Source of the DNA: Actinomycetota bacterium
GTDB taxonomy: Bacteria > Actinomycetota > Geothermincolia > Geothermincolales > RBG-13-55-18
Direction: 5' to 3'
Assembly (NCBI GenBank): GCA_014360645.1
Contig: JACIXD010000016.1
Coordinates: 12,395-76,394, forward strand
DNA: 64,000 nt
Of the stretch, positions 3,380-54,004 are shown in pieces. The position numbers and the translations under genes were made by a program. Below the pieces are notes generated by a model that did no database searches, was not told the origin of the DNA, and saw only the letters and a program-made list of their open reading frames with translations. Each line of letters starts with the position of its first letter. Positions within the stretch are counted from its first letter, which is position 1.

Positions 3380-3466
3380 GGGGTCACATCTTCGATCTTC
3401 GACTCCGGTAACTTATGGCCTGGTCAAGTTAAGTAAACTTGCATCGAAGATCGAAGATACGACCCC
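3380..3466. repeat. REPIN (inverted REP1 pair) immediately upstream of the RAYT gene
   Basis: REP1 (+) lies at 3380-3408 and REP1 (-) at 3442-3466, separated by a ~33-bp spacer. Confidence 0.65.
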
Positions 3467-3495
3467 ATCATTCCGCGGAGGTCAGTGCGAAAGCC

Positions 3496-4452
3496 ATGGC
3501 AAGACAGCTCAGAATCGAGTTCCCGGGCGCCCTATATCATGTCTTCTCCAGGGGCGTCGCCAAGCAGCCCATCTTCGAGTCGGATGAGGACCGCGCCAGG
3601 TTCCTGGACATCCTGGGCAAGGTGGTGGAGCGGCATAACTGGATAATCCACGCCTACTGCCTTATGGGGAACCACTACCACTTGCTGGTGGAGACGCCGG
3701 ATCCCAACCTCTCCCGGGGCATGCAGCTGCTGAACGGCGTCTACGCCCAGCGTCACAACGCCGAGCACGGACGGGTTGGCCATCTCTTCCAGGGGAGGTA
3801 CGGCAATACCCTCGTCGACAAGGAAGAGTACTTCCTCGTCGCGGCGTGCTACATCGTGCTCAACCCGGTGAGGGGAGGACTGGTGGAACACCCTTCCGCC
3901 TATCGCTGGAGCAGCTATAGAGCCACAGCTGGGGCTGAGAAGGCGCCGTCTTTCCTCCACATCAGCAGCATCCTGCTCTGCTTCGCGCCCGACCTGCACA
4001 TGGCGCAGAGGCTTTACCGTGAGTTCGTCGACGGAGGCATAGACGAGGAGACAGCACGGCGACTAGAGTCGGGCGGGGTCTGCGGCGGGGAGGTATTCCA
4101 GGCCTGGGTGGGCGAGATAGTCGAGGGGAGGAAACGGATACGGGAGATACCCCGCAGGCAGAGATACGTGGGGAGGCCGTCCCTGGCGCGTATACTCGAT
4201 GGGTGGGCGGACCAGCGGGAGAGGGACGAGAACATAGCGCGGGCGGTGCAGGACTTCGGGTACACCCAGAAGGAGGTCGCCGACCACCTAGGCCTTGCCC
4301 CCTCCACCGTGAGCGTCATCATGAAGAGGGTCGGGCAGGGATCGAGTGGTGCCCCGGGCGGGGTCAGATCTTCATCGGGCGGGGTCAGATCTTCATTCTT
4401 CGATCCCGGCAGTATTGAGCAGAGCGGGCAGAGCGATCTCGAATCCTATTGA
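3496..4452 (+). CDS. REP-associated tyrosine transposase (RAYT; IS200/IS605-like Y1 HUH transposase, TnpA_REP) with a C-terminal HTH
   Basis: The translation MARQLRIEFPGALYHVFSRG…MGNHYHLLVETP carries the HuH motif, and the catalytic Tyr region RWSSY follows. The C-terminus has an HTH (DFGYTQKEVADHLGLAPSTVSVIMKRV). The gene is flanked on both sides by REP1/REPIN copies. The last ~35 codons read through REP sequence. Confidence 0.75.
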   Translation: MARQLRIEFPGALYHVFSRGVAKQPIFESDEDRARFLDILGKVVERHNWIIHAYCLMGNHYHLLVETPDPNLSRGMQLLNGVYAQRHNAEHGRVGHLFQGRYGNTLVDKEEYFLVAACYIVLNPVRGGLVEHPSAYRWSSYRATAGAEKAPSFLHISSILLCFAPDLHMAQRLYREFVDGGIDEETARRLESGGVCGGEVFQAWVGEIVEGRKRIREIPRRQRYVGRPSLARILDGWADQRERDENIARAVQDFGYTQKEVADHLGLAPSTVSVIMKRVGQGSSGAPGGVRSSSGGVRSSFFDPGSIEQSGQSDLESY

Positions 4453-4479
4453 ATTCCGAAGCATCGGGCGGGGTCAGAT

Positions 4480-4696
4480 CTTCATTCTTCGATCCCGGCA
4501 GTATAGTCAGAGCGAGCACGTCGATTTCTAGCCATCTTTGCCCGCATCGAAGATCGAAGATGTGACCCCAGATTTCCTCATCGGGCGGGGTCAGATCTTC
4601 ATTCTTCGATCCCGGCAGTATAGTCAGAGCGAGCACGTCGATTTCTAGCCATCTTTGCCCGCATCGAAGATCGAAGATGTGACCCCAGATTGTTAA
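4480..4696. repeat. Two tandem copies (period 117 bp) of a REPIN: REP1(+) – 46-bp spacer – REP1(-)
   Basis: REP1(+) copies lie at 4480-4508 and 4597-4625; REP1(-) copies at 4555-4579 and 4672-4696. The two ~100-bp units are near-identical. A further REP1 and a half copy lie at 4370-4419. Confidence 0.75.
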
Positions 4697-5007
4697 TATG
4701 AATTCGGGAAGGCCTGTGCGATCAATGCAAGGGGATGATGGAAGCTGGATCGTGAAGCGAATGGCAAGGTCAACTTCCCGCCTCGCTGCCGGCTGATGCG
4801 CGAGCCCGCGGAAGCGGAGGAAGGCGGCTGGCGGGAAGCGGTGGTCTCTGCGGGTGATCACCTCAAGCGCGTCCTCGACGAGTACGTGGAGCTCGGCTTC
4901 GAGTGCCTGCTGGAGGAACTGGACGCCGAGGCCACCCCCGGATGCTCCGAGTGCTTCAAGTCCGGGGGAGAACGCGTCTACCGCGTCTATGTGCGGAGAA
5001 AGGGCGA

Positions 5008-8051: not shown

Positions 8052-8334
8052 ACAGGACCCCCTCCTTCTTGCGAGCGGGCGGACGCCCGCGCTCTACGGA
8101 CCATCCTGGTTCCCTCTCCGCTGCGCGGCGAGCGGAAGTCAGGCGAGCGCACGGCGCGGAAGAGTGCGCTGGCGCTGCCTTTCCGGGCTCATTTCCCCGT
8201 TCCTTTCTAGCCCCGCGCCGGGATGCGAGCATCTCCGGGGATGCGGGGCGCTGCTCTATCGCGAAACCTGACAGCCGACTTGTTAACCATTTTGCATTCG
8301 ACGACCAACCAAGTCAACCACCATGGGGTCGTGT

Positions 8335-8446
8335 CTTCAATCTTCGATTCACTAACACCATGGGGTCGTTCAATGAACTGGGGGTCAGATCTTCAATCTT
8401 CGATTCAATAAGGGGAACTGGAGGTCGGAACTGGGGGTCGGAACTA
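8335..8446 (+). repeat. REP1 copies and fragments plus GGGGGTCGGAACT x2 mini-repeats
   Basis: REP1 copies at 8335-8360 and 8381-8407, with partial copies between them. Confidence 0.6.
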
Positions 8447-8593
8447 GGGGTCAGATCTTCAATCTTCGATTCAATAGCGATTGGTGGTGTTAGTGGCGGG
8501 GTTTTCATTCAGAATATGCCTATGGCAGGTTCCACTAGCTGACCCCACAAGCGGTTGAGACCTGCCGGCATCGAAGATCGAAGATGTGACCCC
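8447..8593 (+). mobile_element. MITE-like element (~147 bp) bounded by inverted REP1 sequences; left copy
   Basis: REP1(+) at 8447-8473, a 96-bp spacer, then REP1(-) at 8570-8593. It is about 95% identical to the reverse complement of 11026-11172. Confidence 0.7.
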
Positions 8594-12313: not shown

Positions 12314-12493
12314 GGGGTCAGATCTTCGATCTACGATACCAATATATGGGTAATATTCGTGATTTAAACGGCCAACGGCTACCTGATCGCATTGAAAAAG
12401 TAAGGGGTCAGATCTTCGATCTACGATACCAATATATGGGTAATATTCGTGATTTAAACGGCCAACGCTACCTGATCACATGATCACATTGAA
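12314..12493 (+). repeat. Two tandem copies of a 90-bp unit (REP1 plus an AT-rich segment CCAATATATGGGTAATATTCGTGATTTAAACGG)
   Basis: REP1 copies at 12314-12340 and 12404-12430. The units are near-identical. Confidence 0.7.
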
Positions 12494-12744
12494 AGAGAGG
12501 ATCGGGATCTCATTGAAAACGAAGATCCAAAATAATGCCTATGGCACTTTATCTATAATAACGAGGTCAAATTCTCGACGACGGCGACTTATGCTTTAGC
12601 AACTGAGCTGTGGGTACCCGTCTTATCCCCAACCCCGAGCGCAGCGCCTGTGCCTTGTAAGTAAAGCAAAATTGATGCCAGACCCCCGTTTGGCGTTGGC
12701 GCTGGCCGCGTCGATGTTCGGAGAGAACTCGATTGGCAGACAAT

Positions 12745-12944
12745 GCATCGATGATCGAAGATCGAAGATCTGACCCCATCGGGGAATGCATCGATGATCG
12801 AAGATTGAAGATCTGACCCCATCGATCATCTGACCCCATCGGGGAATGCATCGATGATCGAAGATCGAAGATCTGACCCCATCGAGGCCCCATCGAGGCC
12901 CATCGAGGCGCGTCAATGTGTCGAAGATCGAAGATCTGACCCCA
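12745..12944 (-). repeat. Array of four REP1 copies (reverse) within ~50-bp tandem units
   Basis: ATCGATGATCGAAGATCGAAGATCTGACCCCATCG is repeated. The last copy forms the 3' end of the downstream dehydrogenase ORF. Confidence 0.7.
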
Positions 12945-15084: not shown

Positions 15085-15127
15085 CACGGGGGGAGGGGAA
15101 AGGGAGGGAAAAGGGGCCGTGGCGTTC

Positions 15128-15168
15128 ATAATATATATTTATAATTAATATAATGATATATTATATTA
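15128..15168 (+). promoter_or_regulatory. Very AT-rich promoter-like segment directly upstream of the tRNA-like gene
   Basis: TTCATAATATATATTTATAATTAATATAATGATATATTATATTA. A TATATT hexamer ends 7 nt before the first G of the acceptor stem. Confidence 0.5.
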
Positions 15169-15257
15169 GGGAGCACGAGACTGGTGTCTCCCGCGGGCTG
15201 CAAACCCGTTGGCCGGCTCTGAAAAAGTCGGGGTGGGTTCGATCCCCACTGCTCCCC
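15169..15257 (+). tRNA. tRNA-like gene with a class-II-like long variable arm and anticodon loop CUGCAAA (GCA)
   Basis: Acceptor stem GGGAGCA/TGCTCCC (7 bp). T arm GTGGG-TTCGATC-CCCAC. D arm GAGAC-TGGT-GTCTC (5-bp stem, 4-nt loop). Anticodon stem GCGGG/CCCGT with loop CTGCAAA. The variable arm is ~22 nt (CCGGC…GTCGG). The discriminator is C and CCA is not encoded. Confidence 0.5.
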
Positions 15258-15334
15258 TCCAGCCATCTTCACCACCTCACGCTCTCCGGCCCCGAAAAGC
15301 GGTGGTGGCGGCGACCCGTTGCCGCTTATCACGG

Positions 15335-15880
15335 CCTTGCGTGTTCCTCCCACGTCACGCCCGGCTTACTTGAAAGATCCTCCCGGAAGTGAAAGTGACG
15401 GGTGCGGCATAGCGTGTTCCTCCCACGTCACGCCCGGCTTACTTGAAAGATCCTCCCGGAAGTGAAAGTGACGGGTGCGGCCTCGCGTCTTCTTCCCACG
15501 TCACGCCCGGCTTACTTGAAAGATCCTCCCGGAAGTGAAAGTGACGGGTGCGGCATAGCGTGTTCTTCCCACGTCACGCCCGGCTTACTTGAAAGATCCT
15601 CCCGGAAGTGAAAGTGACGGGTGCGGCATAGCGTGTTCCTCCCACGTCACGCCCGGCTTACTTGAAAGATCCTCCCGGAAGTGAAAGTGACGGGTGCGGC
15701 CTCGCGTCTTCTTCCCACGTCACGCCCGGCTTACTTGAAAGATCCTCCCGGAAGTGAAAGTGACGGGTGCGGCATAGCGTGTTCTTCCCACGTCACGCCC
15801 GGCTTACTTGAAAGATCCTCCCGGAAGTGAAAGTGACGGGTGCGGCATAGCGTCTTCTTCCCACGTCACGCCCGGCTAAC
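15335..15880. repeat. Tandem array of a 73-bp unit (8 copies of the core CACGTCACGCCCGGCTTACTTGAAAGATCCTCCCGGAAGTGAAAGTGACGGGTGCGG) with a 3-unit higher-order period
   Basis: Read directly. Unit variants A, B and C recur in the order A-B-C-A-B-C-A-D. There are no unique spacers. Confidence 0.85.
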
Positions 15881-15941
15881 CGCCGGCGGGTAGAGGAAAG
15901 GGGCCGGGTCTCCCCGGCCCCCCTAAACGCCCGAGGCGTTT

Positions 15942-16445
15942 CTACTTGATAATCTCGAAGTACTCCACGTCGTGGATGCTGCCGGTGCGGTTCTCCGCCC
16001 ACACGGCGCGCATGCGCATCCCCACCTCCAGCTCTTTCTCGTCGTAGACGTTGCAGAAGTGCATCATGCGCGTGTTGGCGCCGTCCAGGGTCACCCATAT
16101 GGAGGTGAAGGGGACCTGCTTCATGCCGCCGTTGTTGGCGTCTATATAGGGGAAGCGCACGATGGTGAAGCCCTCGAGGACGCCCTCGGGTCCCACTTCC
16201 ACCCACTCGTTCATCTCCACGTAGCACTTGCCGCAGACCTGGCGGGGAGGCATATACACCCAGCCGCACTCCGGGCATTTCACGCCCATGAAGCGCTTGT
16301 TGTCCCGCAGCTCAGCCAGGAACTTGCTCCAATAATACCCGAGGTGCCAGTGGAAGTCGTACTCCAGGTGGCCGGACTCGTGGGTGAGGAGCTCGTAGCC
16401 CTCGGGGGTATGGGTGCGCTTGCGCTTGTCTTCGTAAAGTCCCAT
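15942..16445 (-). CDS. DUF35 OB-fold/Zn-ribbon protein (thiolase-associated)
   Basis: Zn-ribbon motif CPECGWVYMPPRQVCGKC plus an OB-fold. RBS AGGAGG lies 8 nt before the ATG at 16445. Confidence 0.8.
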   Translation of the reverse strand: MGLYEDKRKRTHTPEGYELLTHESGHLEYDFHWHLGYYWSKFLAELRDNKRFMGVKCPECGWVYMPPRQVCGKCYVEMNEWVEVGPEGVLEGFTIVRFPYIDANNGGMKQVPFTSIWVTLDGANTRMMHFCNVYDEKELEVGMRMRAVWAENRTGSIHDVEYFEIIK

Positions 16446-19264: not shown

Positions 19265-19722
19265 CTCCCTTTACCTGACCCTGCTGCCGATAAGTGGTAC
19301 GTTCGCCGGAACCTCCATCCATCACCTCCTCACGGGGGCCGGATACCCTCCAGGACGTTGTCCGCCGTGCATCCCTCCTGGGGTGCGGCCGATGCCTTAC
19401 TATTTCCCGACTCAAGCCCCTTTTGGTCGTGTCCGCCGTCCGGGTCCTTGCGGGTAAAGACGACGGTGCCGTGACGTTTGGAAGAAAAATTCCTCACGGA
19501 GACTCCAATCGCGTTACGTCTCATCCCTCTACCCGAGCCGGCGGGCTGGCCGCACGTGGCCGTTTGCCGGAACAGATGCCCGTGTCCAGGGGCCGTGCCA
19601 ACAGATGCTTCGTAGCGTCGGGGCGCGCCCTCCTCCGCGCCCCCGAGCCGGCGCATAAAGCTTGTATTAAGCGAGCGTTAATATTCTATTACTTTTGCCG
19701 CCGTAAATAAATGGGGTCAGCC

Positions 19723-19817
19723 CCGGACATGGGACATTGTCGTTGAACATCTTTATCCAGGGTCAGCCCCGGACATGGGACATTGTCGTTGAACATCTTC
19801 ATCCAGCGCCACCGGAC
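19723..19817 (+). repeat. Two tandem copies of a 48-bp unit containing REP2 (GGGGTCAGCCCCGGACATGGGACA)
   Basis: Read directly. The copies lie in the 750-nt region upstream of the DUF35-thiolase operon. Confidence 0.75.
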
Positions 19818-28326: not shown

Positions 28327-28454
28327 TTTATTCCTCACCACCCTTGCTCTGTCTGACTGCGGTGGTGCTATGGTAGCATCCGGAAGCATGATTTGGAAAC
28401 CGAATGCGGAGCCAGACGGCCCGCCCCCTTAAATTCCGTTCGGGATTGACGATA

Positions 28455-31373
28455 ATGTTCATGAAAACCGGTCTTTCGCAAGGGGGCGACTTGCGCGAGT
28501 TGCGACGCATGATGGCCGTGACGGCCTCTATATCGTTTCTCTTACTGATCGCCGCGCCGCCCGCGTCAGCGCTGGGGAGCGCGGCTCGGTCAGATGCCTC
28601 TGTGCCGGGTTCCGGGATGCCTTCGGTCCGGGCCGAGGGCACCGTCTTCTCTCTCCCGGAGGGCCGCGCGGCAGAGGAGGCAGCGGCCCCCGCCGCCACG
28701 CCTTTCACCCCCTCCTCCACCCCCGGCACGGTGGGGGAACGATTCGGGGTGGCCTCCAGCCACATCAAGCTCTACGACGGGGCGACGGTGGAGAGGGAGT
28801 TCGCCGCCGCGGAAGATGCCGGCGCAGCCTGGCTGCGCTGCGACTTCGCCTGGTCGGACCTGGAACCCCTGCCGGGGGTGTGGAACTTCTCCGGGGCGGA
28901 CGCGGTGGTGGAGAGGGCCGGGACCCACGGCGTGAAGCTGCTGGGCATCCTGGGGGCGGCTCCCCCCTGGGCCAACGGGGGACAGGACTGGAGGTATCCC
29001 CCCACGGACCTCGAGGCGTGGCGGGGATACGTGCGCACCGTGGCCGCGCGCTACCGCGGCCGGGTGGCTGCCTGGGAGGTATGGAACGAGGAGAACATCC
29101 ACGCCTTCTGGATGCCGGAGCCCGACCCGGAAGCGTACCTGGAGCTGCTGGCCGCGGCCTCCGCTGAGATCCGTGCCGCCGATCCCTCGGCCGCGGTGGT
29201 CATGGGCGGAGTGGCGGGCCTGGGCCCAGACTACCTGGACGCCTGCCTCTCCCTGGGTGCGGCGGAATATATAGACGCCATCGCCTACCATCCCTACGCG
29301 GAGACCGTCGGGGAGGAGGGGCAGCCGCCGGAGGACACCTACCGTCCCAAGGAGAGGCTCTGCCGTAACCTGGTGGCCTTCGTGCACTGGCTGGTCTCGC
29401 TGTACACGGCGAAGGACCTGCAGGTCTGGATAACCGAGGTGGGCTGGCCCACCAGTCCCGAGGCACCGAGCGGGGTGGACGAGGACACCCAGGCGGACTA
29501 TCTGCTGCGCACCCTCATAAACTACGCCTCCACCGACGTGGACCGCGTGATCTGGTTCAACCTGCGCGATACCCACCTCAACGACTGGGACCGCTACGGG
29601 CTGCTCAGGCGTGACTTCACCCCCAAGGCCTCGTATGCCTTCTACTCCACCTTCACGCGGGTGTTGGGGGCGGCTGCCGGGATAGACAACGCCACGGTCT
29701 CCTTTTCCTGTTCCCGGCCCCAGACCCTGGAGGCGCACTGTTTCCGCATGGCCGGCGGCGGACTGGCGCTTTCGGCCTGGAAGAGCGACGACGCGGCCGA
29801 TTCCCTCTCCTTCACGGTCAACGACCCTGACTACGCGGACCCGCAGCGCGTGGATCCCTTGAGCGGCGCGACCTCCGCCCTGGCGGGGACGTCGCGGGAC
29901 GCCGCGGGAAGGATCACGGTGAGCGGGCTCCCCGTGGGGAAGAGGCCGGTCATCGTCACCCTCGAGAGGGGAGCCCCAGAACCCGGGCCGGAGCCGGGCC
30001 CGCAGCCGCCGGAGGGAGGCAGCACTTTCTACTTCGCCGAGGGCTACACGGGAGAGGGTTTCCAGGAGTACCTCTGCGTGGGGAACGTGGACGAGGCCGA
30101 GGCGGAGGTCGAGGTGGATTTCCTCTTCTCCGATGGCTCATCCTCCGTACAGCGGTTCAGGGTGCCGCGAGGCTCGCGTTTCACCCTCGACGTGAACGCG
30201 GCGGTGGGTCCGGGCAGGGAGGTGTCCATGGCGGTCACCTCTGAGCGGAGGGTGGTCGCCGAGCGCCCCATGTATTTCACCTACGGGAAGGGGTGGACGG
30301 GGGGTCACGCGGTCATGGGGGCGCGGGGTCCCGCGCGGGAGTGGTATTTCGCCGAGGGCTACACGGGAGAGGGTTTCGATCAGTGGCTGTGCGTGATGAA
30401 CCCGGGAGGTGAGGCCGCGGAACTGACCTTCCGTTTCCAGACGGAGGAGAAAGGGGAGGTGGTGGTGGATAGGCTCGGGGTGGCCCCGCGCTCCCGCGCC
30501 ACCTTCCGGGTCAACGAACTGCTCGGCGACGGTTTCCAGAACTCCTGCGCGGTCCAGGCCTCCGTGCCGGTGGTGGTAGAGCGGCCGGTATATTTCGATT
30601 ACCTGGGAACGGGTTCGCATCATTGGGAGGGGGGCCACTGCGTGATGGGGGCCACGTCCACCGGGCGCCGCTTTCTCTTCGCGGAGGGCTCCACGCGGGA
30701 GGACTTCGAGGAATGGATAACCCTCCAGAACCCCAACCCTTTCCCCATCGAGGTCTCGGCCCTCTACGTGTTCGGGCCGGGACAGGGGGAGCCGCTGGGC
30801 CGTACCTACCGCGTGGAGGGCGGGAGGAGGTCCACCATATTCGTGCCCGCGGAGGTAGGCCAGGACAGGGACGTGTCGGTGGAGCTGACCTCAGGGGACG
30901 GGTTCCTCGCGGAGCGGCCCGTGTACTTCTCATATGGCGGGGCGGGGGCTGACGGATGGGAGGGCGGGCACTGCGTCATCGGTGCGGGCGTCGGGGCGGA
31001 CGAATGGCGGTTCGCCGAGGGATACACTGGAGAGGGCTTCCATAACTGGCTGTGCGTGCTGAACCCGGGCGGCGAGGAGGCGGTGGTGGAGGTCGCCTAT
31101 CTCACCCAGGAGGAAGGAGCCCTCGAGCCGCGCACCCTGAACGTGCCGCCGCGTTCCCGCGCCACCCTCTTCGTCAACCAGCACGCCGGCGCCGGATACC
31201 AGCTCTCCTGCCGGCTGCGCGTGCTCGCAGGTCCCGCGGTGGTGGCCGAGCGGCCTATGTACTTCTCGCATGACGGGCGCGACGGCGGGCACGCCGTATT
31301 CCCATGGGGTCAGCCCCGGACATGGGACAATTATTTGAACCCCATGGAGCCGGAGTCTCCGCCTGCACAATAG
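28455..31373 (+). CDS. Secreted glycoside hydrolase (clan GH-A TIM barrel) with four C-terminal ~95-aa FAEG-type repeat domains
   Basis: Signal peptide MFMKTGL…AAPPASA. Catalytic acid-like motif WEVWNEEN and nucleophile-like motif VWITEVGWP. Repeats begin FYFAEGYTGEGF…, WYFAEGYTGEGF…, FLFAEGSTREDF… and WRFAEGYTGEGF…. The last ~23 codons are encoded by a REP2 copy (31306-31329). Confidence 0.7.
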   Translation: MFMKTGLSQGGDLRELRRMMAVTASISFLLLIAAPPASALGSAARSDASVPGSGMPSVRAEGTVFSLPEGRAAEEAAAPAATPFTPSSTPGTVGERFGVASSHIKLYDGATVEREFAAAEDAGAAWLRCDFAWSDLEPLPGVWNFSGADAVVERAGTHGVKLLGILGAAPPWANGGQDWRYPPTDLEAWRGYVRTVAARYRGRVAAWEVWNEENIHAFWMPEPDPEAYLELLAAASAEIRAADPSAAVVMGGVAGLGPDYLDACLSLGAAEYIDAIAYHPYAETVGEEGQPPEDTYRPKERLCRNLVAFVHWLVSLYTAKDLQVWITEVGWPTSPEAPSGVDEDTQADYLLRTLINYASTDVDRVIWFNLRDTHLNDWDRYGLLRRDFTPKASYAFYSTFTRVLGAAAGIDNATVSFSCSRPQTLEAHCFRMAGGGLALSAWKSDDAADSLSFTVNDPDYADPQRVDPLSGATSALAGTSRDAAGRITVSGLPVGKRPVIVTLERGAPEPGPEPGPQPPEGGSTFYFAEGYTGEGFQEYLCVGNVDEAEAEVEVDFLFSDGSSSVQRFRVPRGSRFTLDVNAAVGPGREVSMAVTSERRVVAERPMYFTYGKGWTGGHAVMGARGPAREWYFAEGYTGEGFDQWLCVMNPGGEAAELTFRFQTEEKGEVVVDRLGVAPRSRATFRVNELLGDGFQNSCAVQASVPVVVERPVYFDYLGTGSHHWEGGHCVMGATSTGRRFLFAEGSTREDFEEWITLQNPNPFPIEVSALYVFGPGQGEPLGRTYRVEGGRRSTIFVPAEVGQDRDVSVELTSGDGFLAERPVYFSYGGAGADGWEGGHCVIGAGVGADEWRFAEGYTGEGFHNWLCVLNPGGEEAVVEVAYLTQEEGALEPRTLNVPPRSRATLFVNQHAGAGYQLSCRLRVLAGPAVVAERPMYFSHDGRDGGHAVFPWGQPRTWDNYLNPMEPESPPAQ

Positions 31374-31598
31374 CGCCTTCACCACCTGTCCGATGGCGTC
31401 CGTTCTTCATCTTTCCGGCTCGCCACACGGGGCAGGGGCGGGAGGCGCGGGTGCGTGTGTGGAGACCGGAGCCGTCCCCTTTCCTCCGCACGGTCCCGTC
31501 CGCGGCCCTCGAGACGCACCCCATGGAATTTGCCCTATCCACCCACGGGGAGTAACCTGTAAGCAAGTATGTACAAGGAGACTGCCGTGAGGGTCAGC

Positions 31599-31623
31599 CC
31601 CGGACATGGGACAAAGGCGGGAG
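31599..31623 (+). repeat. REP2 copy
   Basis: GAGGGTCAGCCCCGGACATGGGACA. Confidence 0.7.
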
Positions 31624-31712
31624 GCGCGGGTGTGGGCACGGAGACCGGAGCCGACCCGTCATCACCCCCCGCAAGATCCGACCGCCTGTTCTCGAGACGG
31701 CCACCGCGCGCG

Positions 31713-34700
31713 GTGTCACATCGAGTCGAGGGACCTTGCCCACGGCGCAGGGCTTTCCCGTTCCGGACCGCGGGCGGCAAGCTCGCCCTAGCCTGCGCGG
31801 CGGCGCTGATTCTTTTGGCAATGATTTCCTCTACGGGGAGCATCGCCGGCACGGGCTCCCCCGCTCGGAGCGAGCTGCCGGACACCGCCCGTTTCACGCG
31901 CGATCCCTTCACCGCTCGGACCGGTGAGCTGCTGGTCGGACTTGAGGCCGCGGCGGCAGAGGGGGTCGGAAAGATGCTGGAGGGCGCGGGCGCGGGCCGG
32001 GTGGAGGAGGAGCTGCTGCGTTCGGGAAGGGTGTCCCTGAAGAGGATACGCCTGGACAGCGGCCTCTCGCCGCGTGAGGCGGCGTCGCTTTTGGACGTCC
32101 TACCCCAGGTGCTCTACGCAGAGCCGGACCACGCGGTGCGCATGGATTATTCTCCCGTTGACCCCGCTTACCAGCCCGAGCAGTGGGGCCTCCACAACTA
32201 CGGCCAGCTTATCGGAGGAACGGAAGGCCTTCCCGGGGCGGATATCGGAGCCGAGGAGGCCTGGGACATCGAGCGGGGCCTCTCCAACCCCGTCACGGTG
32301 GCGGTGGTGGACACGGGCCTGGACCTATACCATCCCGACCTGGAGGACAAGATTTGGGTGAACGCGGGAGAGGTGCCGGGGAACGGCGTGGACGACGACG
32401 CCAACGGATATGTCGACGACACGCGGGGGTACAACTGGGCGGGCATCACCCAGGGCCGGTATTACTATTATGATTACGCCGAGAAGAGGTACTACACCAC
32501 CGCCTGGTATTTCGGCTACAGCTTAACCAACCGGTTGCTGGCGCAGTCCATAAGGGGTGCCGGCTGTCCCCTCACCCACGTGGGTATCATCCTGCAGAGG
32601 GTCGGAAACCCGGCGGAGGGCGTCACCGTCTCGCTGCGATCCTCCCTCTCCGGCGCGGACCTGTCATCCCTGTATATCGCCCCCGGTGAGGTGAGCGAGT
32701 CGGGGGGAGAGATCTACCTGCCCCTTTCCGTTCCCGTGAACCTGGCGGAGGGAGCCACCTATTACCTCGTCTTCCGGACCTCCAACCTCGATACCTCGAA
32801 CCATTACTACCTCTACCACAACTTCGTGGACGACCCGCCCGACCCCGACACCGACCAGTACGACCCTTACCTCGACGGCCGCGAATACCGGTGGACTGGA
32901 TCGGCGTGGGAGGAGTTCGGGAGCTGGGACTTCTACTTCCGCACCAACCCCAACCCCCGACCCCGCGACGACAACGGCCACGGCACCCACGTGGCGGGGA
33001 TCATCGGGGCCGAGGAGGGGAACGCGGAGGGAGGGGTGGGGGTCTCCTTCGGTGCCGGGATCATCCCTCTCAAGGTGCTGGACTGCTCGGGCAGCGGCTA
33101 TTACTCGGATATCATCTCCGGCATGAGGTACGCCGCTGACGGCGGCGCCGCGGTGATCAACCTCAGCCTGGGAGGCACGTCGTATTCCGACGCCATGCAG
33201 GAGGCGGTGGACTACGCGCGGGCGAAGGGCGCCGTGGTTCTGGCCGCGGCGGGCAACAGCGGGGACGGCACCGTGCTCTATCCCGCGGGATGCGAGGGGG
33301 TAGTGGGGGTGGGCGCTACCACCAACCGCGATGTGCGCGCCGCATTTTCCAGCTACAACCAGTATGTGGACCTCACGGCGCCGGGTTGGTTCGTCTATTC
33401 CACCATGCCCACCTACCCCGCCGCCCTTAACTCCCTGGGATACGGACAGGGTTACGACTATCTATCGGGCACCTCCATGGCCACCCCCATGGCCTCGGGT
33501 CTGGCCGCCCTGGTGCGTTCCCTGCGGCCGGGTTACGGACCTGACGAGGTGTGGGTCGCCATGCGGGACCACGCCAGGGACCTCGGGCCCCCCGGACGCG
33601 ACGACGAGTACGGCTACGGGCGCATAGACGCCGCCGCCACCCTGGAGAGCATTCAGGTCGCCCCCTACATCTCCTCCCTCGCGCCCTCCCGGGGAAGGGT
33701 GGGGGAGAAGGTGACCATCGAGGGCAGCGCCTTCGGGAGCGTCCGGGGCGCCTCATCCGTCTCCTTCGGCGGGGTGGAGGCCTCCCTCTACGACGCCTGG
33801 TCCGACACCGCCGTGACCTGCTACGTGCCCCCGGGCGTGGCGGGAGTGGTGGAGGTGACCCTGACCACCCCCGGTGGGATCTCCAACGCCCGCGCCTTCA
33901 GCGTCTTGCCTGCCATCTCCTCCCTCGCGCCCTCCCGGGGAAGGGTGGGGGAGAAGGTGACCATCGAGGGCAGCGCCTTCGGGAGCGTCCGGGGCGCCTC
34001 ATCCGTCTCCTTCGGCGGGGTGGAGGCCTCCCTCTACGACGCCTGGTCCGACACCGCCGTGACCTGCTACGTGCCCCCGGGCGTGGCGGGAGTGTTGAAG
34101 GTGACCCTGACCACCCCCGGTGGGATCTCCAACGCCGTGCCTTTCACGGTCGAGGAAGCACCCCCCTCCACCACCTGGTACCTCGCCGAGGGCTGCACGG
34201 AGGGGGGCATGGAGACCTGGGTGCTGGTGCAGAACCCGGGAGACGCCCCCGCCTCCATAGCCATGGATTTCCAGACCGCCACGGGACGGGTGGAAGGCCC
34301 CCGCGAGACGGTGCCCGCCCGCTCCCGCCGCACCTACGAGGTGAGCAGGTACGTCACCGCCTGGGACGTCTCCACCACCGTCACCTCCGACCTCCCGGTG
34401 GTGGCGGAGCGCGCCATGTACGGCGGGAACCGCACCTGGGCCCACGACTCCGTGGGGGTCACCGCCCCCTCCACCACCTGGTACCTCGCCGAGGGCTGCA
34501 CGGAGGGGGGCATGGAGACCTGGGTGCTGGTGCAGAACCCGGGAGACGCCCCCGCCTCCATAGCCATGGATTTCCAGACCGCCACGGGACGGGTGGAAGG
34601 CCCCCGCGAGACGGTGCCCGCCCGCTCCCGCCGCACCTACGAGGTGAGCAGGTACGTCACCGCCTGGGACGTCTCCACCACCGTCACCTCCGACCTCCCG

Positions 34701-34772
34701 GTGGTGGCGGAGCGCGCCATGTACGGCGGGAACCGCACCTGGGCCCACGACTCCGTGGGCTACACGCCCTGA
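31713..34772 (+). CDS. Secreted S8 subtilisin-like peptidase with 2 IPT/TIG-like domains and 2 FAEG-type repeat domains
   Basis: Catalytic triad motifs VAVVDTGLD, NGHGTHVAGII and GTSMATPMASG. Signal peptide …LALACAAALILLAMISS. The start is uncertain: a GTG at 31713 is proposed, and the ATG at 31569 would read through REP2. Two perfect internal tandem duplications are present (33661-34140 as 2x240 bp, and 34141-34740 as 2x300 bp). Confidence 0.7.
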   Translation: MSHRVEGPCPRRRAFPFRTAGGKLALACAAALILLAMISSTGSIAGTGSPARSELPDTARFTRDPFTARTGELLVGLEAAAAEGVGKMLEGAGAGRVEEELLRSGRVSLKRIRLDSGLSPREAASLLDVLPQVLYAEPDHAVRMDYSPVDPAYQPEQWGLHNYGQLIGGTEGLPGADIGAEEAWDIERGLSNPVTVAVVDTGLDLYHPDLEDKIWVNAGEVPGNGVDDDANGYVDDTRGYNWAGITQGRYYYYDYAEKRYYTTAWYFGYSLTNRLLAQSIRGAGCPLTHVGIILQRVGNPAEGVTVSLRSSLSGADLSSLYIAPGEVSESGGEIYLPLSVPVNLAEGATYYLVFRTSNLDTSNHYYLYHNFVDDPPDPDTDQYDPYLDGREYRWTGSAWEEFGSWDFYFRTNPNPRPRDDNGHGTHVAGIIGAEEGNAEGGVGVSFGAGIIPLKVLDCSGSGYYSDIISGMRYAADGGAAVINLSLGGTSYSDAMQEAVDYARAKGAVVLAAAGNSGDGTVLYPAGCEGVVGVGATTNRDVRAAFSSYNQYVDLTAPGWFVYSTMPTYPAALNSLGYGQGYDYLSGTSMATPMASGLAALVRSLRPGYGPDEVWVAMRDHARDLGPPGRDDEYGYGRIDAAATLESIQVAPYISSLAPSRGRVGEKVTIEGSAFGSVRGASSVSFGGVEASLYDAWSDTAVTCYVPPGVAGVVEVTLTTPGGISNARAFSVLPAISSLAPSRGRVGEKVTIEGSAFGSVRGASSVSFGGVEASLYDAWSDTAVTCYVPPGVAGVLKVTLTTPGGISNAVPFTVEEAPPSTTWYLAEGCTEGGMETWVLVQNPGDAPASIAMDFQTATGRVEGPRETVPARSRRTYEVSRYVTAWDVSTTVTSDLPVVAERAMYGGNRTWAHDSVGVTAPSTTWYLAEGCTEGGMETWVLVQNPGDAPASIAMDFQTATGRVEGPRETVPARSRRTYEVSRYVTAWDVSTTVTSDLPVVAERAMYGGNRTWAHDSVGYTP

Positions 34773-45577: not shown

Positions 45578-45865
45578 CTCCGTCCTTTTTCCGTTTGCCG
45601 TATGGAATCTCAGCCGCGGGCTGCGACGGGTTGATGCGGCGCGCCGTCTTCCCGCGGCGGCAGCGGACCTCCTCACGGATGTTTACCCCTTGCTTTACAC
45701 ATTATAGCGCTACGGGCGCGTTTTGGCGCTCTTTAGGCGCGGGAGGCGGCGGGCTCGGTGGGCCGGCTGCCTCGCCGTATCCGCGGAGTCGTGGGGCGGG
45801 CGTGCCCTTTCTCGCCGGCCCGCGTGGCCGGGCGGTGGGGTCACGAGGGCGGAGCGCCCCGTGGG

Positions 45866-45873
45866 GTTTATAA
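45866..45873 (+). promoter_or_regulatory. -10 box TATAAT lying 8 nt upstream of the rnd ATG (leaderless transcript)
   Basis: TTTATAATAGGCGC-ATG. No SD is present. Confidence 0.35.
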
Positions 45874-45880
45874 TAGGCGC

Positions 45881-46996
45881 ATGACGGATTTCAGGTACGT
45901 GGACGACCCGGCCGCGCTGGAGGATGCCGTGGAGCGGCTGCGCGGCTGCCGCAGCATCTCCGTGGACCTCGAATCCGACAGCTACCACCATTATGCCGAG
46001 AAGATAGCCCTGGTTCAGGTGTGCGGCGGAGGGGAGATCTTCATCCTGGATCCCCTGCGCGTGGACCTCGCTCCCCTGGCGGACCTGCTGGCGGAGAGGG
46101 GTATCGAGAAGGTCTTTCACGACGTCGACTATGACGGACGCATGCTCCTGACCTACTTGGGGGTGAAGCCGGCTCCCGTCTTCGACACCATGATCGCGGC
46201 GCGGGTCCTGGGGAAAGAGAGGATCGGGCTGGCCGACCTGCTGGCGGAGTATTTCGGCCTGGCCATGGACAAGAGGTTCCAGAAGGCGGACTGGTCCCGG
46301 CGTCCTCTCGGCGTGGGGATGCTGGAATACGCCGCCCTCGACGTTGCCTACCTGGCTTCCCTCCGTGACCGACTCCACGACGAGCTGGTAGGGTGCAGAA
46401 GGGAAGCATGGGCGCGGGAGGAGTTCGAGCGGGCGGTGGAGGGCCTGGAGCCCATGCCCGAGCGCACCGTCGACCTGCGGCGGGTGAAGGGCGCGAGGGA
46501 ACTCTCGCCCCGCCAGCTCGCCGTGCTGCGCGAGCTGATGCGCTGGCGAGAGGAGCGCGCGCGGGAGAGCGACGTCCCCACCTTCAAGATCGTGGGCAAC
46601 GACAGGCTCCTGAAGGTAGCGCAGGCGTGCCCACGCGACCGCGGCCAGCTTGCTGCCTCGGGAGCCCTCTCCGAGAGGCAGATCGCGCGGTTCGGGCCGG
46701 AGATCCTCAAGGCGGTGGGAAGGGGGATGCGGGCGCCTCGCGAGGACCTGCCCTCTATGCCCGTCCCCGTACATCAGAGGCGCGACCTGGCGGCGGAGAA
46801 GATCCTGCGAGAGCTGAAGGCTGCACGCGACCGCAAGGCTGCCGAGCTGGGCATGGACCCCGGCTTCCTCCTCCCTAACGCCGTCTTGAAGGCCGTGGCC
46901 CGCCTCAAGCCCTCCGGAACCGCCGAGCTCGAGGAGAGCGGCCTGCTGAAGGGTTGGCGGCTGAAGATCATGAAGGATATACTCACCAGCGGATGA
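45881..46996 (+). CDS. rnd: Ribonuclease D (DEDDy 3'-5' exonuclease plus HRDC domain)
   Basis: Exonuclease motifs DLESDSYHHY, …FHDVDYD… and …YAALDVAYL, with a C-terminal HRDC domain. Confidence 0.8.
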   Translation: MTDFRYVDDPAALEDAVERLRGCRSISVDLESDSYHHYAEKIALVQVCGGGEIFILDPLRVDLAPLADLLAERGIEKVFHDVDYDGRMLLTYLGVKPAPVFDTMIAARVLGKERIGLADLLAEYFGLAMDKRFQKADWSRRPLGVGMLEYAALDVAYLASLRDRLHDELVGCRREAWAREEFERAVEGLEPMPERTVDLRRVKGARELSPRQLAVLRELMRWREERARESDVPTFKIVGNDRLLKVAQACPRDRGQLAASGALSERQIARFGPEILKAVGRGMRAPREDLPSMPVPVHQRRDLAAEKILRELKAARDRKAAELGMDPGFLLPNAVLKAVARLKPSGTAELEESGLLKGWRLKIMKDILTSG

Positions 46997-47120
46997 CCCG
47001 CCGCCGCAAGCCGTGGAGCACTGATCTCGACGGGGCATCTTCCATAATATTCCTCCACCGCACGCGCATGAACCGGCTCCCGCGGTCCCGTACCCGAAAC
47101 CGAGGGCGGGCCCCAGAGCT

Positions 47121-48077
47121 TCATGCGTGGGGCGTACCGCACCGGCGGCAGAACCGCTCCTGCGCCGATGCCCGGGGATGGCCGCACCTGCGGCAGTAAA
47201 GGGGCGTGGGCGCGGCGCCGCTCGCCTGGCCGCCGGGGATGTCGCCACCGGCTTCTGTCCCCATACCCCCATCGCCGGTCTCCGGGGCGGTGCCCGCGGC
47301 CGCCGGGGGCATGGGCTCGCCCGCGCCGGCCTGCGCGGCGGGCGGAGCATGAGGCGTCAGGGAGGCGGGAGCCCTGAAGGGAGCGGCCCGGCGGGTGAGC
47401 AGGAAGAGCAGCAGGAGCAGGGACACCGCCATGAGCAGGGAGAAGACGAGGATCAACAGGGTCTTGTTGGCCGCCAGGAAGCCTTTCTCCGCCTTCGCCG
47501 GGGGCAACCTGTAGGTGAGGGTGCCGGAGCTCTCGTCGAAACGGGCTTCCCGCGCGCCCGCAGGCAGGTCGATCACCACCCTCTCCTCCAGCCCCATGGT
47601 CTCGAAGAGGGTCCACTCGTTGTTGAGGGTCCAGTACGCCTCCAGGACCACCTCGTCGTCGCTCTCCCTGTCGAGGGCGTAGCCCGCGTATCCGAAGACC
47701 GTCCAACCGTCCTTGAGGTTATAGGCCAGGCCCGGGGTGCGGAAGGAGATGGTCACCGTGGCCTTGCGGGCATCCACCTTCACCTCGAAGTCCTCCACCT
47801 CCCCCACTCCGCTGTCGGAACGGTAGCGGCGGGAGAGGAGGCCGGGGTTCTCTTCGAACAGGTAACCGTACTCGTCAAACCAGCCCCGGTCGTAGGTGAT
47901 CACGTCGGTGATGCGGGCGTCTCCCACCTCGTCTATCTCCATCCGGTATTCCTCCCGGAGGCTGAACTCTCCCTCTTTGCCCAGTTCCTGCGCCGCCGCC
48001 CCCGGGGCGTAGGGAATGAGCAACGCGCACAGGAGCGCGAGGGGGAAAAGCGCGCGCAGGACCCTGCTGCCTACCAT
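47121..48077 (-). CDS. Secreted/membrane-anchored protein with a C-terminal TM helix and a cytoplasmic Zn-ribbon (CRRCG…CRRCG)
   Basis: Signal peptide, a mid/C-terminal TM helix, and a cysteine pair at the C-terminus. It overlaps the upstream gene by 7 nt. Confidence 0.5.
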   Translation of the reverse strand: MVGSRVLRALFPLALLCALLIPYAPGAAAQELGKEGEFSLREEYRMEIDEVGDARITDVITYDRGWFDEYGYLFEENPGLLSRRYRSDSGVGEVEDFEVKVDARKATVTISFRTPGLAYNLKDGWTVFGYAGYALDRESDDEVVLEAYWTLNNEWTLFETMGLEERVVIDLPAGAREARFDESSGTLTYRLPPAKAEKGFLAANKTLLILVFSLLMAVSLLLLLFLLTRRAAPFRAPASLTPHAPPAAQAGAGEPMPPAAAGTAPETGDGGMGTEAGGDIPGGQASGAAPTPLYCRRCGHPRASAQERFCRRCGTPHA

Positions 48078-49186
48078 ATCGGCATCACCCCCCGGCGCCA
48101 GGCATCCTCGATGTCGATGAGTATGTAGCTGCCTCCCTCTATCGCTTCGGCGATCTCATCCGCGGCGATGGTCACGCATTCCTCGGCGGTCACCTCGGGG
48201 CTCGTCTCCCCCGGGAAATGGCTCAGGGCATAATCCCTGTCCACGAAGGTCGATTCGATGGCGAAGAGTTCCCCGCTGCCGGGCAGCTCGATTACCGGTA
48301 TGGCGTGGCCGGGGATCAGGGCCACGAAGGAGCGGATGCCTATGGCCTCCATGAGGGCGGCCATGCATATGGCCAGGTCCAGGCAGGTGCCGGAGGCGCG
48401 CTCCAGGGTCTCGTGGGGATACTGCACGTACTGAGCCGTGCGCGACGACCAGTAGCTCAGCGGCTCCTGGATATACCTGACCCCGAGCTGGCGCATGACC
48501 TCGAAACAGCGCAGGAAGGCGGTATAGACGTCCTCGTCGCTGGTATTGGTCTCCAGCCCGGATCCGACGGCGTTGGCGACGCTCTTCACCGTCTCCTGGT
48601 TGGGGGTGACGAAGGCGGCGATCATGGGGTAGTTGTCGAAGGCGTCGGAGAAGGTGATGATGTCCTCCTCGGCGAGGTCGGTGAACACGAAGTCGTTGCG
48701 GCCTAGGAGGTAGATCTTCTCCGTGTCCTCCACGGGCTTGTCCAGGCCTTCGTATTCGTAGCGCATGGTGAGCTCGGCCGGGGTCTTGGAGGTGATGCCC
48801 TTCATCTTCTCGTCGTCGAGGTTGGGCCAGCAGTAGTCCCTCACCGTCTGGCCGGGCAGGATCTCGGGATATATCTCCGTGGAGGTCCAGTCGCAGTAGC
48901 CCTCTATCCTGTAAGAGATGCGGAAGTCGCGCACCGGGGTATCGCCGACGTTTTTGATCAGGGCCTTCGCGGCCCAGAAGTTCTGGTTGTCGTCGCCGTA
49001 GATCTTGTAGGCGGCGGTGAGGAGCTCCTCCCGGACGTGCAGCCTGACGTCGAGCTTCGCCTCCCCGCTCTCCCCCTTTTCCCCGGCGGTGAGGGCGAGG
49101 ACCAGCCCGGCTGTGGAGCCCAGGAAGATAAGAGCGAGGAGGAGGGAGAGAATCGTTCTGGCGGGCTTGCTCATAGTGTATCCCAT
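48071..49186 (-). CDS. Secreted transglutaminase-like (papain-fold) protein
   Basis: Signal peptide, then the core motif GTCLDLAICMAALMEAIGIRSFVALIPGHAIP. Confidence 0.55.
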   Translation of the reverse strand: MGYTMSKPARTILSLLLALIFLGSTAGLVLALTAGEKGESGEAKLDVRLHVREELLTAAYKIYGDDNQNFWAAKALIKNVGDTPVRDFRISYRIEGYCDWTSTEIYPEILPGQTVRDYCWPNLDDEKMKGITSKTPAELTMRYEYEGLDKPVEDTEKIYLLGRNDFVFTDLAEEDIITFSDAFDNYPMIAAFVTPNQETVKSVANAVGSGLETNTSDEDVYTAFLRCFEVMRQLGVRYIQEPLSYWSSRTAQYVQYPHETLERASGTCLDLAICMAALMEAIGIRSFVALIPGHAIPVIELPGSGELFAIESTFVDRDYALSHFPGETSPEVTAEECVTIAADEIAEAIEGGSYILIDIEDAWRRGVMPIW

Positions 49187-49267
49187 TCCCGTGCTGCTAA
49201 CGCAGCGCTCTTGGCCAACATCCTTCGACCAGCATTATACCCCGGGCGTGTGATAAAATCTCACTCT

Positions 49268-50338: not shown

Positions 50339-50498
50339 GCCGGGCGGGCCCGGTCGCGACGGGCCCGTGTGGGACGGAAGGACGCTCTCCAGCCCTTGCG
50401 GCCCGCGGGGGCATCCGTCGGCAGGGCCGTCGGAGGGCGGAGATGGAGACGGAGGTGGAAACCTGTGTGGGAGAAGCGTGGCATCCCGGGGAGGTCTC

Positions 50499-50933
50499 GT
50501 GATAGCGGGGGTTGAGATCAGGGAACTGGACACGGATCTGGATGCGGCGGGGGCGACCACGGCGGTATGGGCCGAGGGAGCCGCGCCCCGCCTCTCCTCC
50601 CTGGACGTGAGGCGCCTCTTCCCCGGGGTGGTGGAGGCCTGGACGCTGCGCGAGGAAGCGGCGGAGCGGGTGTTCTGTCTGCAGGGGATGATCAAGCTGG
50701 TGCTCTGCGACCGGCGCGAGGGGTCGCCGACCCGGGACGAGGTCATGGAGCTCTTCCTCGGGGAATACCGCCCCCGCGAGGTGCTCGTCCCCCCCGGCGT
50801 GCTCAGGGGATGGAAGGCGGTGGGAGGACGGGAAGCCATGGTGTGCCTGGCCCTGGAGGGCGGCGGCGGAGCCCGCACCTTGTCCCGGGAGGAGGCGCGG
50901 GTGCCCTACGACTGGGAGATCGTCATGCGCTAG
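50499..50933 (+). CDS. dTDP-sugar 3,5-epimerase-like cupin (RmlC-like)
   Basis: Cupin strands …LVLCDRREGSPT…VLVPPGVLRGWKAV. A GTG start with RBS GGGGAGG is proposed. Family assignment is tentative. Confidence 0.45.
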   Translation: MIAGVEIRELDTDLDAAGATTAVWAEGAAPRLSSLDVRRLFPGVVEAWTLREEAAERVFCLQGMIKLVLCDRREGSPTRDEVMELFLGEYRPREVLVPPGVLRGWKAVGGREAMVCLALEGGGGARTLSREEARVPYDWEIVMR

Positions 50934-50982
50934 TCCGCGCGGGGCGCAGGGCGCGGGGAAAAGAAGGGAAGCGAAAGAGGAT

Positions 50983-51981: not shown

Positions 51982-52059
51982 GGTCGCGGCCTCGGTGATG
52001 AAGAGGGCACGGGAAACCACGGCCGCGCACGGAGTCCGAGAACGGGGAGTGGTGGACAG

Positions 52060-53726: not shown

Positions 53727-54004
53727 GCCGTTCTCCTTTCTCTCGCCCCGTTTCCGGGTGAAGACTACACCTGGACGATATAGAAATCTACCCCTCCGGG
53801 AGGGAACCTAAACTGGTGCTGGAGCCCCGCCGCAGGGATCCGCCGCTCGCGGCCTCCTCGCGGCGCCTCTCACCCCGTGCACGTGACCGCCGAGCCCGGC
53901 GGTTGATGGAAGACGATGGCAGGGGGGGTGGTATGGGTTATACTCGTCTCGAAGGGGGCGTCCAGGCCCCTCGCCCGGGATCGCGGTGAACTTGCGGGGA
54001 GGTG

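Follow-up and report, generated by a model that had tools for sequence, protein, structure and literature searches.

A 73-bp tandem array beside a selC*-type tRNA gene in an uncultured Geothermincolia-like actinobacterium: a probable lineage-restricted minisatellite

Introduction

Mycobacterial interspersed repetitive units (MIRUs) reportedly can carry short open reading frames (ORFs) and, in an account credited to Supply et al. in 1997, these small ORFs are said to overlap the stop and start codons of neighbouring genes. In Mycobacterium tuberculosis, a member of the Actinomycetota, MIRU variable-number tandem repeat (MIRU-VNTR) loci consist of head-to-tail, non-coding, intergenic units of 40-100 bp in one to several copies, and MIRUs have been hypothesised to be transcribed within polycistronic operons (PMC3635867). 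Here we describe an array of a 73-bp unit at positions 15332-15877 of a 64,000-nt stretch of DNA from an uncultured Geothermincolia-like actinobacterium (assembly GCA_014360645.1, contig JACIXD010000016.1, positions 12,395 to 76,394; hereafter the window, to which all coordinates refer unless a locus is named). The array shares with MIRU-VNTR loci the phylum, the head-to-tail, non-coding and intergenic organisation, the size range of the unit and, as assembled, a copy number that differs between close relatives. However, MIRUs form an interspersed family at dozens of loci, whereas the 73-bp unit occupies a single locus in all the sequence compared, where it stands between convergent genes, after a tRNA gene and a terminator, and not between the genes of an operon; sequence similarity between the unit and MIRUs is also absent. 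The array qualifies as a bacterial minisatellite whose closest named relatives are the MIRU-VNTR loci, but, being single-locus in the sequence compared and not embedded between operon genes, not as a member of a MIRU-type family.

Other repeat systems resemble the array in part. The sopC site of the F plasmid has 12 units of 43 bp with an inverted repeat in each, and centromere-like and iteron arrays in general resemble our locus in repeating one unit in tandem, inverted repeat included. The 73-bp array, in contrast, is surrounded by metabolic genes of a chromosome, par and rep genes being absent, has short arms 38 bp apart and shows no similarity to plasmids. CRISPR arrays are likewise regularly spaced direct repeats in non-coding DNA, but here the whole 73-bp period repeats and unique spacers are absent, the units differing at just four columns with a handful of alleles; moreover, the period and its invariant part do not fit a repeat-plus-spacer arrangement. 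A first-pass annotation, made by reading the sequence alone, had set CRISPR aside on the same grounds, and our results agree. Repetitive extragenic palindromes (REPs), their paired form (REPINs) and the REP-associated tyrosine transposases (RAYTs) are represented in the same window by a RAYT-like gene and 31 short intergenic REP-like motifs, some of them tandemly duplicated. Nevertheless, the 73-bp unit lacks the REP-like motif TCGAAGATCGAAGATNYGACCCC (0 of 31 copies fall in the array), is not dispersed, and runs head-to-tail instead of forming inverted doublets.

The array differs in copy number and unit order between two assemblies, is specific to its locus and is absent from sister species. 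On these grounds we read it, with a probability of about 0.6, as a young, lineage-restricted, non-coding minisatellite, that is, a VNTR locus.

Results and discussion

Architecture of the array

Tandem Repeats Finder called 7.5 copies of the unit with 96% matches, no indels and a score of 1008, a copy number far above that of any other array in the window. Laid in register, the units resolve into seven full 73-bp copies (starting at 15332, 15405, 15478, 15551, 15624, 15697 and 15770) followed by a 35-nt partial eighth unit (15843-15877), and a repeat search returned a constant unit-to-unit spacing of 73 nt. The first-pass annotation had thus recognised the array and its period correctly, but had counted eight copies. 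A 54-nt core of the unit is found seven times without a mismatch, against none in 100 shuffles, and all seven matches in the window fall within the array.

Variation among units is confined to columns 5, 7, 12 and 16, bracketed in the 5' patch CGGC[A/C]T[A/C/T]GCGT[G/C]TTC[C/T]TCCC, and the remaining 69 columns are invariant in all copies. Five patch variants occur in the window, namely A' (CTTG/G/C), A (ATAG/G/C), B (CTCG/C/T), C (ATAG/G/T) and D (ATAG/C/T), in the order A'-A-B-C-A-B-C-D, where D is the partial unit; with CTCG/G/T, the alleles across all assemblies amount to six, and the rest of the unit is again invariant. Units 2-4 (15405-15623) are exactly identical to units 5-7 (15624-15842), which makes 15405-15842 a higher-order repeat of two 219-bp A-B-C blocks, as the mismatch count at lag 219 also supports. 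The 219-bp period proposed earlier therefore holds, although the order proposed with it, A-B-C-A-B-C-A-D, does not.

Every full unit contains the inverted repeat CGTCAC...GTGACG, with arms of 6-8 bp that lie 38 bp apart. Two CCTCCC motifs, initially ascribed to each unit, are present in units 1, 2 and 5 only, the other units having CTTCCC and CCTCCC, and the listing of units gives 10 plus-strand CCUCCC over the whole array. No ORF of at least 70 aa spans the array, those listed merely clipping its edges, and 73 is not a multiple of 3; a coding reading was dropped for want of an ORF running through the repeats. The array is a genuine, non-coding, head-to-tail tandem repeat.

Variation between assemblies of the same species

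Thiolase and metallo-beta-lactamase (MBL)-fold proteins 100% identical to those encoded on either side of the array were found in the metagenome-assembled genome (MAG) GCA_030018255.1 and also on several Logan contigs and a single JGI contig. Over 21 kb the MAG contig (L001) matches the window with 97-99.8% identity, and its array flanks are identical to those of the window. In this roughly 99% identical genome the array comprises 3.5 units ordered A'-A-C-B, and the patch of the terminal partial unit differs among the window, L001 and a further contig of the species (L003). Looking for length differences between strains, as the first-pass annotation had suggested, thus gave 7.5 versus 3.5 units, but both counts were read from assembled metagenomes, in which repeats of this kind may be collapsed or put in the wrong order. 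Among 111 loci, the core matched only L001 and L004, which represent the same locus.

The copy number and the A-B-C/A-B-C order could consequently be products of the assembler, the true array being shorter or reordered. Short-read contigs break within the array in six independent assemblies: four Logan contigs end 36-37 nt into unit 1, which we infer to be the expected branch point of a k=31 graph if A' and A units coexist, and two further contigs break from the opposite side. In addition, the two assemblies of 99%-identical genomes disagree, and several other exactly duplicated tandem blocks are present in the window. Against an artefact, at least two to three units with distinct patch variants are needed to cause such breaks, these same variants offer anchors to the assembler, and L001 independently yields 3.5 units between identical flanks. 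We regard an assembly artefact as unlikely; it would bear on copy number alone and not on the existence or nature of the array.

Copy number also differs between the window and L001 at intergenic arrays of 46 bp (19714), 90 bp (12309), 43/60 bp and 54 bp, and the alignment of the window with the MAG breaks at other intergenic tandem repeats. Variable tandem duplication looks like a genome-wide habit of the organism. The array had at first been described as highly unusual for a bacterial genome; given that other strain-variable intergenic tandem duplications abound in this one, and that Actinomycetota are well known to have minisatellites with units of 40-100 bp between genes (MIRU-VNTR; PMC3635867), that description was overstated.

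Absence of the unit from the orthologous gap of other species

The orthologous gap was compared in seven other species or populations, at loci reached via a protein database. Homologues of the MBL protein were labelled Actinomycetota, 'Candidatus Solincola tengchongensis' or Geothermincolia, and the convergent arrangement of the MBL gene and the DUF35/thiolase genes was retained in all the relatives fetched. A search of genome contigs with the MBL protein returned one true orthologue, on the contig of L010, and distant paralogues only.

The gap between the MBL and DUF35 genes is hypervariable, ranging from 98 to more than 748 bp. In L018 (98 bp) it contains essentially a terminator hairpin alone, a hairpin that is kept in the sister species L010, L018 and L108. 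No tandem repeat was called in L105 (Solincola; 145 bp) or in L108 (513 bp), and L014 (344 bp) has one short 11-bp repeat only. Two other gaps have repeats of their own, 26-bp x2 and 41-bp x2 in L102 (3715-4081 of that locus, 367 bp) and 134-bp x2 in L010 (4742-5260, 519 bp). The longest gap, that of L019-L021 (4736-5483 in L019, more than 748 bp), contains a tRNA module together with unrelated repeats, including in L019 a direct repeat about 231 bp apart. The 73-bp unit is absent from all seven gaps (blastn; Smith-Waterman with shuffles). A progenitor of the unit within these gaps was sought and rejected: the best candidate was a 12-nt exact match to L010, which 5 of 300 shuffles equalled, which is missing in the sister L019 and which is not significant after seven tests.

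The AT-rich stretch and the tRNA gene that precede the array are shared with L019-L021, window positions 15128-15261 being 89.6% identical to L019 over 135 nt (blastn). What comes after this module (4775-4910) in L019 is unrelated to the array and homologous to the gap of L010, and L010 lacks the module though the two loci share 92% identity over 4.5 kb. Three more tRNAs of this kind (L109-L111) were recovered from JGI metagenomes with a gapped pattern; a SelB-like ORF follows the one in L110, and an MvhD-like ORF follows another of the three. After the tRNA there is no tandem array of the 73-bp kind in L019-L021 and no downstream tandem array in L109-L111, and a general association of selC*-type tRNAs with such arrays was rejected, the three further JGI tRNAs having no downstream tandem repeat. 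Thus, since the tRNA occurs elsewhere without the array and the gaps lack the unit, the array does not go together with the tRNA and is not a conserved part of the locus, and on this comparison it appears to have arisen in the window's own lineage.

Exact core patterns (a 29-, a 26- and a 27-mer) had no match in genome, metagenome and viral contig collections, scans that miss relatives below about 90% identity and that apparently do not include the window's own genome, so that they show only that the unit is not widespread. The unit is specific to this locus, as first proposed, in the sense that no copy was found elsewhere in the window, in the collections or at the other loci compared. The loci fetched from many genomes, about 620 kb in all, contained outside the species no array with a period of at least 30 and at least 2.8 copies, which indicates that such arrays are uncommon but not exceptional.

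Genomic setting of the array

The array follows a tRNA-like gene (15169-15257) on the plus strand and lies at the 3' end of a minus-strand DUF35/thiolase operon, as the first-pass annotation had it, so that it occupies a convergent gap, after the tRNA on one strand and beyond the operon terminator on the other. Upstream of it on the plus strand, a gene for an MBL-fold hydrolase ends at 15084. An AT-only, promoter-like stretch (15125-15167) stands directly upstream of the tRNA; the promoter scan returned two sites there against 0.2 expected, TTCATA-18-TATAAT and TTTATA-18-TATATT, within a block of 40 nt of pure A/T. The tRNA itself (15169-15261 including the 3' CCA) is called Cys(GCA) by ARAGORN at 15169-15257 and matches the Rfam tRNA-Sec model with 59.2 bits against a gathering score of 47. 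Its 3' end reads ...TGCTCCCC-T-CCA, which gives U73 and an encoded CCA if the acceptor stem has 8 bp with an A1.C72 mismatch, the 7-bp reading giving C73; the homologous tRNA of L109 has a clean 8-bp stem followed by T and CCA.

Mukai et al. (Nucleic Acids Res 2017; PMC5389517) reported a class of tRNA-Cys genes termed selC* from Firmicutes, Thermodesulfobacteria, Nitrospirae and Proteobacteria, with Actinomycetota not among the hosts. Hallmarks of the class are a tRNA-Sec-like cloverleaf, a long variable arm, a GCA or UCA anticodon, a U73 discriminator, and the company of a selB*-like gene and of full Sec machinery in the genome. With its tRNA-Sec-like cloverleaf, long variable arm and GCA (Cys) anticodon, and its U73-CCA end under the 8-bp reading, the predicted tRNA fits this class. 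The likeness concerns the neighbouring gene only: the main text of PMC5389517 contains no word beginning with 'repeat', and the homologous tRNAs compared here have no tandem array. An EF-Tu-type G1 motif, expected of a SelB-like gene, is absent from the six-frame translations of the 64-kb window.

Between the tRNA and the array lies a unique plus-strand spacer of 70 nt (15262-15331), predicted to fold into two small GC hairpins (CACCACC...GGTGGTG and GGCGGC...GCCGCT). Its candidacy as a degenerate unit was rejected, the Smith-Waterman score against the unit being reached by 42 of 500 shuffles, and a derivation of the unit from the tRNA, the spacer or the flanks was not significant either. On the right, a minus-strand GC hairpin at 15896-15925 (GGGGCCGGG-TCTC-CCCGGCCCC) is followed on that strand by a T-rich tail, TTTCCTCT. 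It was not called by the consensus terminator scan, and its homologues in L010, L018 and L108 suggest that it is the terminator of the DUF35/thiolase operon, which would bound the array on this side. The DUF35 (ChsH2-like) gene that closes this thiolase-like operon has its stop codon at 15942, and the flanking genes are of beta-oxidation type.

An imperfect 18-nt direct repeat (15/18; 15102-15119 and 15889-15906) found in the repeat search brackets the AT-rich stretch, the tRNA and the array. Its right copy is the left half of the terminator and its left copy reproduces that half (GAAAAGGGGCCG) as it is conserved in L010 and L018, so that the repeat could be the footprint of an insertion in the terminator or a chance match in purine-rich sequence. 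If it were a target duplication, the locus might be the relic of a mobile or integrated element beside a tRNA gene, with the array as its cargo or its end. The left copy's likeness to the ancestral terminator, the behaviour of the tRNA module as an indel between the 92%-identical L010 and L019, and the activity of a RAYT-like transposase and of REP-like repeats in the same window all speak for such a relic. Nevertheless, no adjacent integrase or transposase is present, and a 15/18 match in sequence of this composition may be fortuitous. An attL/attR arrangement was rejected since the 3' end of the tRNA is not duplicated anywhere in the window. The unit resembles neither the REP-like motif, from which a derivation was rejected (162 of 200 shuffles scored at least as high by Smith-Waterman), nor the sequence that follows the tRNA in L019, nor phage, plasmid or viral collections; blastn of 15259-15960, set for distant matches, found no plasmid or phage similarity. 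We consider a mobile relic very unlikely.

Folding and transcription of the plus strand

The tRNA is the likely source of plus-strand transcription into the array. The array could be a regulatory RNA, made together with the selC*-type tRNA from a promoter in the AT-rich stretch and acting as one long RNA or as processed units of about 73 nt, whose anti-Shine-Dalgarno-like CCUCCC motifs would pair with Shine-Dalgarno (SD) regions of mRNAs or titrate an RNA-binding protein. In its favour, the tRNA is immediately preceded by the promoter-like site, the terminator scan found no consensus site between tRNA and array, the 10 CCUCCC motifs lie on the plus strand, one of them in the 7-nt hairpin loop of the minimum free energy (MFE) fold, and the unit combines an invariant core with a short variable patch.

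However, folding was no better than that of dinucleotide shuffles on either strand (z = +0.05, +0.31, -0.75, +0.56, -0.58 and +0.86) when one unit, two units, the core alone and the whole tRNA-to-terminator transcript were folded. This argues against a structured 3' untranslated region or terminator array, one of the roles first suggested, and the inverted repeat in each unit, though real, brings no unusual stability. The G12->C variant, at the only variable column that is paired, breaks a predicted MFE pair with no compensating change and with it the loop hairpin, and in most units the loop motif is CUUCCC. Rfam 15 at E<=10 returned nothing within the units, the tRNA alone passing; weak sub-threshold matches on the minus strand, Xoo2 (15294-15344) and sR28 (15312-15336), cover mostly the spacer and clip the start of unit 1. 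No promoter-like or terminator-like site was detected inside the units at the scan thresholds. Finally, the array is not conserved in other species or beside other selC*-type tRNAs, and its copy number is not constant between the two assemblies. A regulatory RNA is therefore improbable, and the earlier proposals of a reiterated small RNA or peptide array and of an anti-SD sponge gain no support, given the missing Rfam match, the loss of a start codon in three of eight units and the lack of conservation.

Minus-strand reading frames

The minus strand carries five identical copies of a 14-codon ORF, MPHPSLSLPGGSFK, ending in TAA (15848-15804, 15775-15731, 15629-15585, 15556-15512 and 15410-15366; ORF search), none of which touches the flanking genes. 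Read-through from the thiolase/DUF35 operon might thus yield up to five 14-residue peptides, each with its own SD and ATG, and the orientation shared with the upstream operon is compatible with this. The ORF had been noted from the start, with unit B recognised as lacking the ATG, but A' lacks it too, so that three of the eight units are startless, and GGGAGG-N7-ATG precedes only the copies at 15629 and 15410, the other three (C and D units) having GGGAAG. The four polymorphic columns fall on the ATG, its -1 base, the spacer and the SD, which makes the start signals of the mini-ORF the least conserved part of the unit. Together with the lost start codons, this argues against a selected peptide array. 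Two mini-ORFs remain in the sister assembly (GCA_030018255.1), conservation outside the species is absent, the array lies downstream of the conserved operon terminator hairpin with no minus-strand promoter-like site found, and beyond it the minus strand holds only the antisense of the tRNA and of the MBL gene. We consider a peptide array very unlikely.

The array as a protein-binding site

The array might instead be a landing pad on DNA, centromere-like, iteron-like or for a nucleoid protein or regulator, with one dimer per 73-bp unit contacting the invariant core and the CGTCAC/GTGACG arms. A core without variation joined by a variable linker patch, the inverted repeat that every unit has and, by simple arithmetic, a period of about 7 helical turns, near integral, would suit such a function. 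The arms, however, are just 6-8 bp long and 38 bp apart, the unit is not conserved at the orthologous site, and the flanks hold genes of beta-oxidation type with no partition, replication or mobile-element gene. Indeed, none of the partition, replication, integrase, reverse-transcriptase and cas families was detected by Pfam among the 30 larger window ORFs scanned, which, like the annotation of L001, comprise metabolic, regulatory and surface proteins only; plasmid and phage similarity is also absent. No inflection of the GC skew was found near 15 kb. A binding array is, on this balance, quite unlikely. A replication origin, suggested by the AT block and the repeats, was rejected on the GC skew and on the identity of the AT block as the conserved promoter region of the tRNA. 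A system like a diversity-generating retroelement or a CRISPR was dropped, there being no reverse transcriptase or cas gene among the scanned ORFs and no unique spacers.

Other repeats and genes in the window

The dispersed motif TCGAAGATCGAAGATNYGACCCC occurs in 31 copies on both strands (0.27 expected) between 1000 and 13000, for example at 3226, 3252, 4360-4686, 8325-8593 and 12314-12943. The copies are intergenic, often in inverted pairs and in some cases tandemly duplicated, and L010 has its own version, AAGATACGACCCC; the motif looks like a REP/REPIN-type family. The product of a plus-strand ORF at 3439-4452 contains a Y1 transposase domain of the IS200-like kind (Pfam Y1_Tnp); among NCBIfam models it scores highest with 'REP-associated tyrosine transposase', at 70.8 bits, below the 80-bit cutoff. 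Since the GAAGAT...GACCCC motif flanks it on both sides, the ORF is likely a RAYT with its REPs.

Another short motif, GGGTCAGCCCCGGACATGGGACA, is also dispersed, with four copies at 19714-19805 (two in tandem), 31307-31352 and 31591-31636; the tandem is single-copy in L001 and the other two copies flank the start of a subtilase gene. This ORF (31569-34772; subtilase/TIG/DUF5719 surface protein) contains in-frame tandem duplications at 33668-34143 (246 bp x1.9, 98%, 82 codons) and 34162-34759 (303 bp x2.0, 100%, 101 codons), which arose by very recent duplication of domains or else in the assembly. With the ORFs at 28404-31373 and 54796-56832 it shares DUF5719-type repeats that recur about every 315-330 bp, in a repeat-rich secreted or surface family whose heads are glycosyl hydrolase, subtilase and polysaccharide deacetylase domains. 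On the minus strand, a run of six long ORFs (318-547 aa) at 45710-52020 and 53870-54925 has no Pfam match at E<=1e-5.

Origin of the array and its meaning

The minisatellite reading can be put as a sequence of events. A single 73-bp segment would first have been duplicated, and the array would then have grown and shrunk by replication slippage or by out-of-register homologous exchange between units, a process that would also have homogenised the unit cores; the exact duplication of the A-B-C block would be the footprint of one event with a three-unit offset. Since the array lies outside genes and upstream of the operon terminator, changes in copy number would be tolerated. Its transcription would most likely be passive, the tRNA precursor including it as a 3' trailer that is lost in processing, the SD+ATG mini-ORFs and the CCUCCC motifs being incidental to the amplified sequence. 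The convergent gap itself serves in this actinobacterial lineage as a dumping ground or hotspot for species-specific insertions and tandem duplications. We infer the origin by slippage or recombination, the passive transcription and the lack of function; a conserved RNA, peptide or protein-binding role appears unsupported by the comparisons made.

Several observations weigh against this reading. The four variable columns are clustered within 12 nt (for example 15409-15420), with P about 0.011, and an invariant core beside a variable patch could mean a constrained core and not homogenisation alone, which leaves room for a core that might act as an RNA or a protein-binding site. The confinement of polymorphism to the patch could come from a constrained core, a local mutational hotspot or one multi-nucleotide event followed by recombination, and homogenisation plus one multi-nucleotide event can equally explain the clustering. 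The minus-strand SD-ATG and the 10 plus-strand CCUCCC exceed what a typical random 73-mer would offer. Moreover, all six to seven assemblies seen of the species contain the array, or at minimum its units A' and A, which suggests that it is stably maintained within the species, and the difference between 7.5 and 3.5 units is either biological or a mis-resolution by the assembler, and so not proof of polymorphism. Single-locus status refers to the 64-kb window, the collections searched and the loci compared, and lack of function would be deduced solely from lacking conservation and lacking signal.

The invariant core beside a 12-nt variable patch would leave room for an array that is functional after all, either as a fast-evolving appendage of the selC*-type tRNA transcript or as a minus-strand, dosage-variable source of the 14-residue peptide. 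In the appendage version, the CU-rich (CCUCCC) RNA would pair with SD sequences or titrate a translation factor, its copy number tuning the dose. We hold a function of either kind to be highly improbable; were it real, the locus would offer an example, rare in bacteria, of a recoding-type tRNA with a regulatory RNA or peptide attached that is reiterated in tandem.

The selC*-type tRNA(GCA) and the RAYT with its REP-like repeats are probably worth more follow-up than the array, and the former would add a phylum, through Actinomycetota/Geothermincolia, to the selC*-bearing groups of PMC5389517. If the array is a minisatellite, it matters little beyond three uses: it may serve as a strain-typing marker for this uncultured Geothermincolia-like actinobacterium, it warns that the locus breaks short-read assemblies, and it illustrates how the convergent gaps of this lineage gather species-specific tandem duplications.

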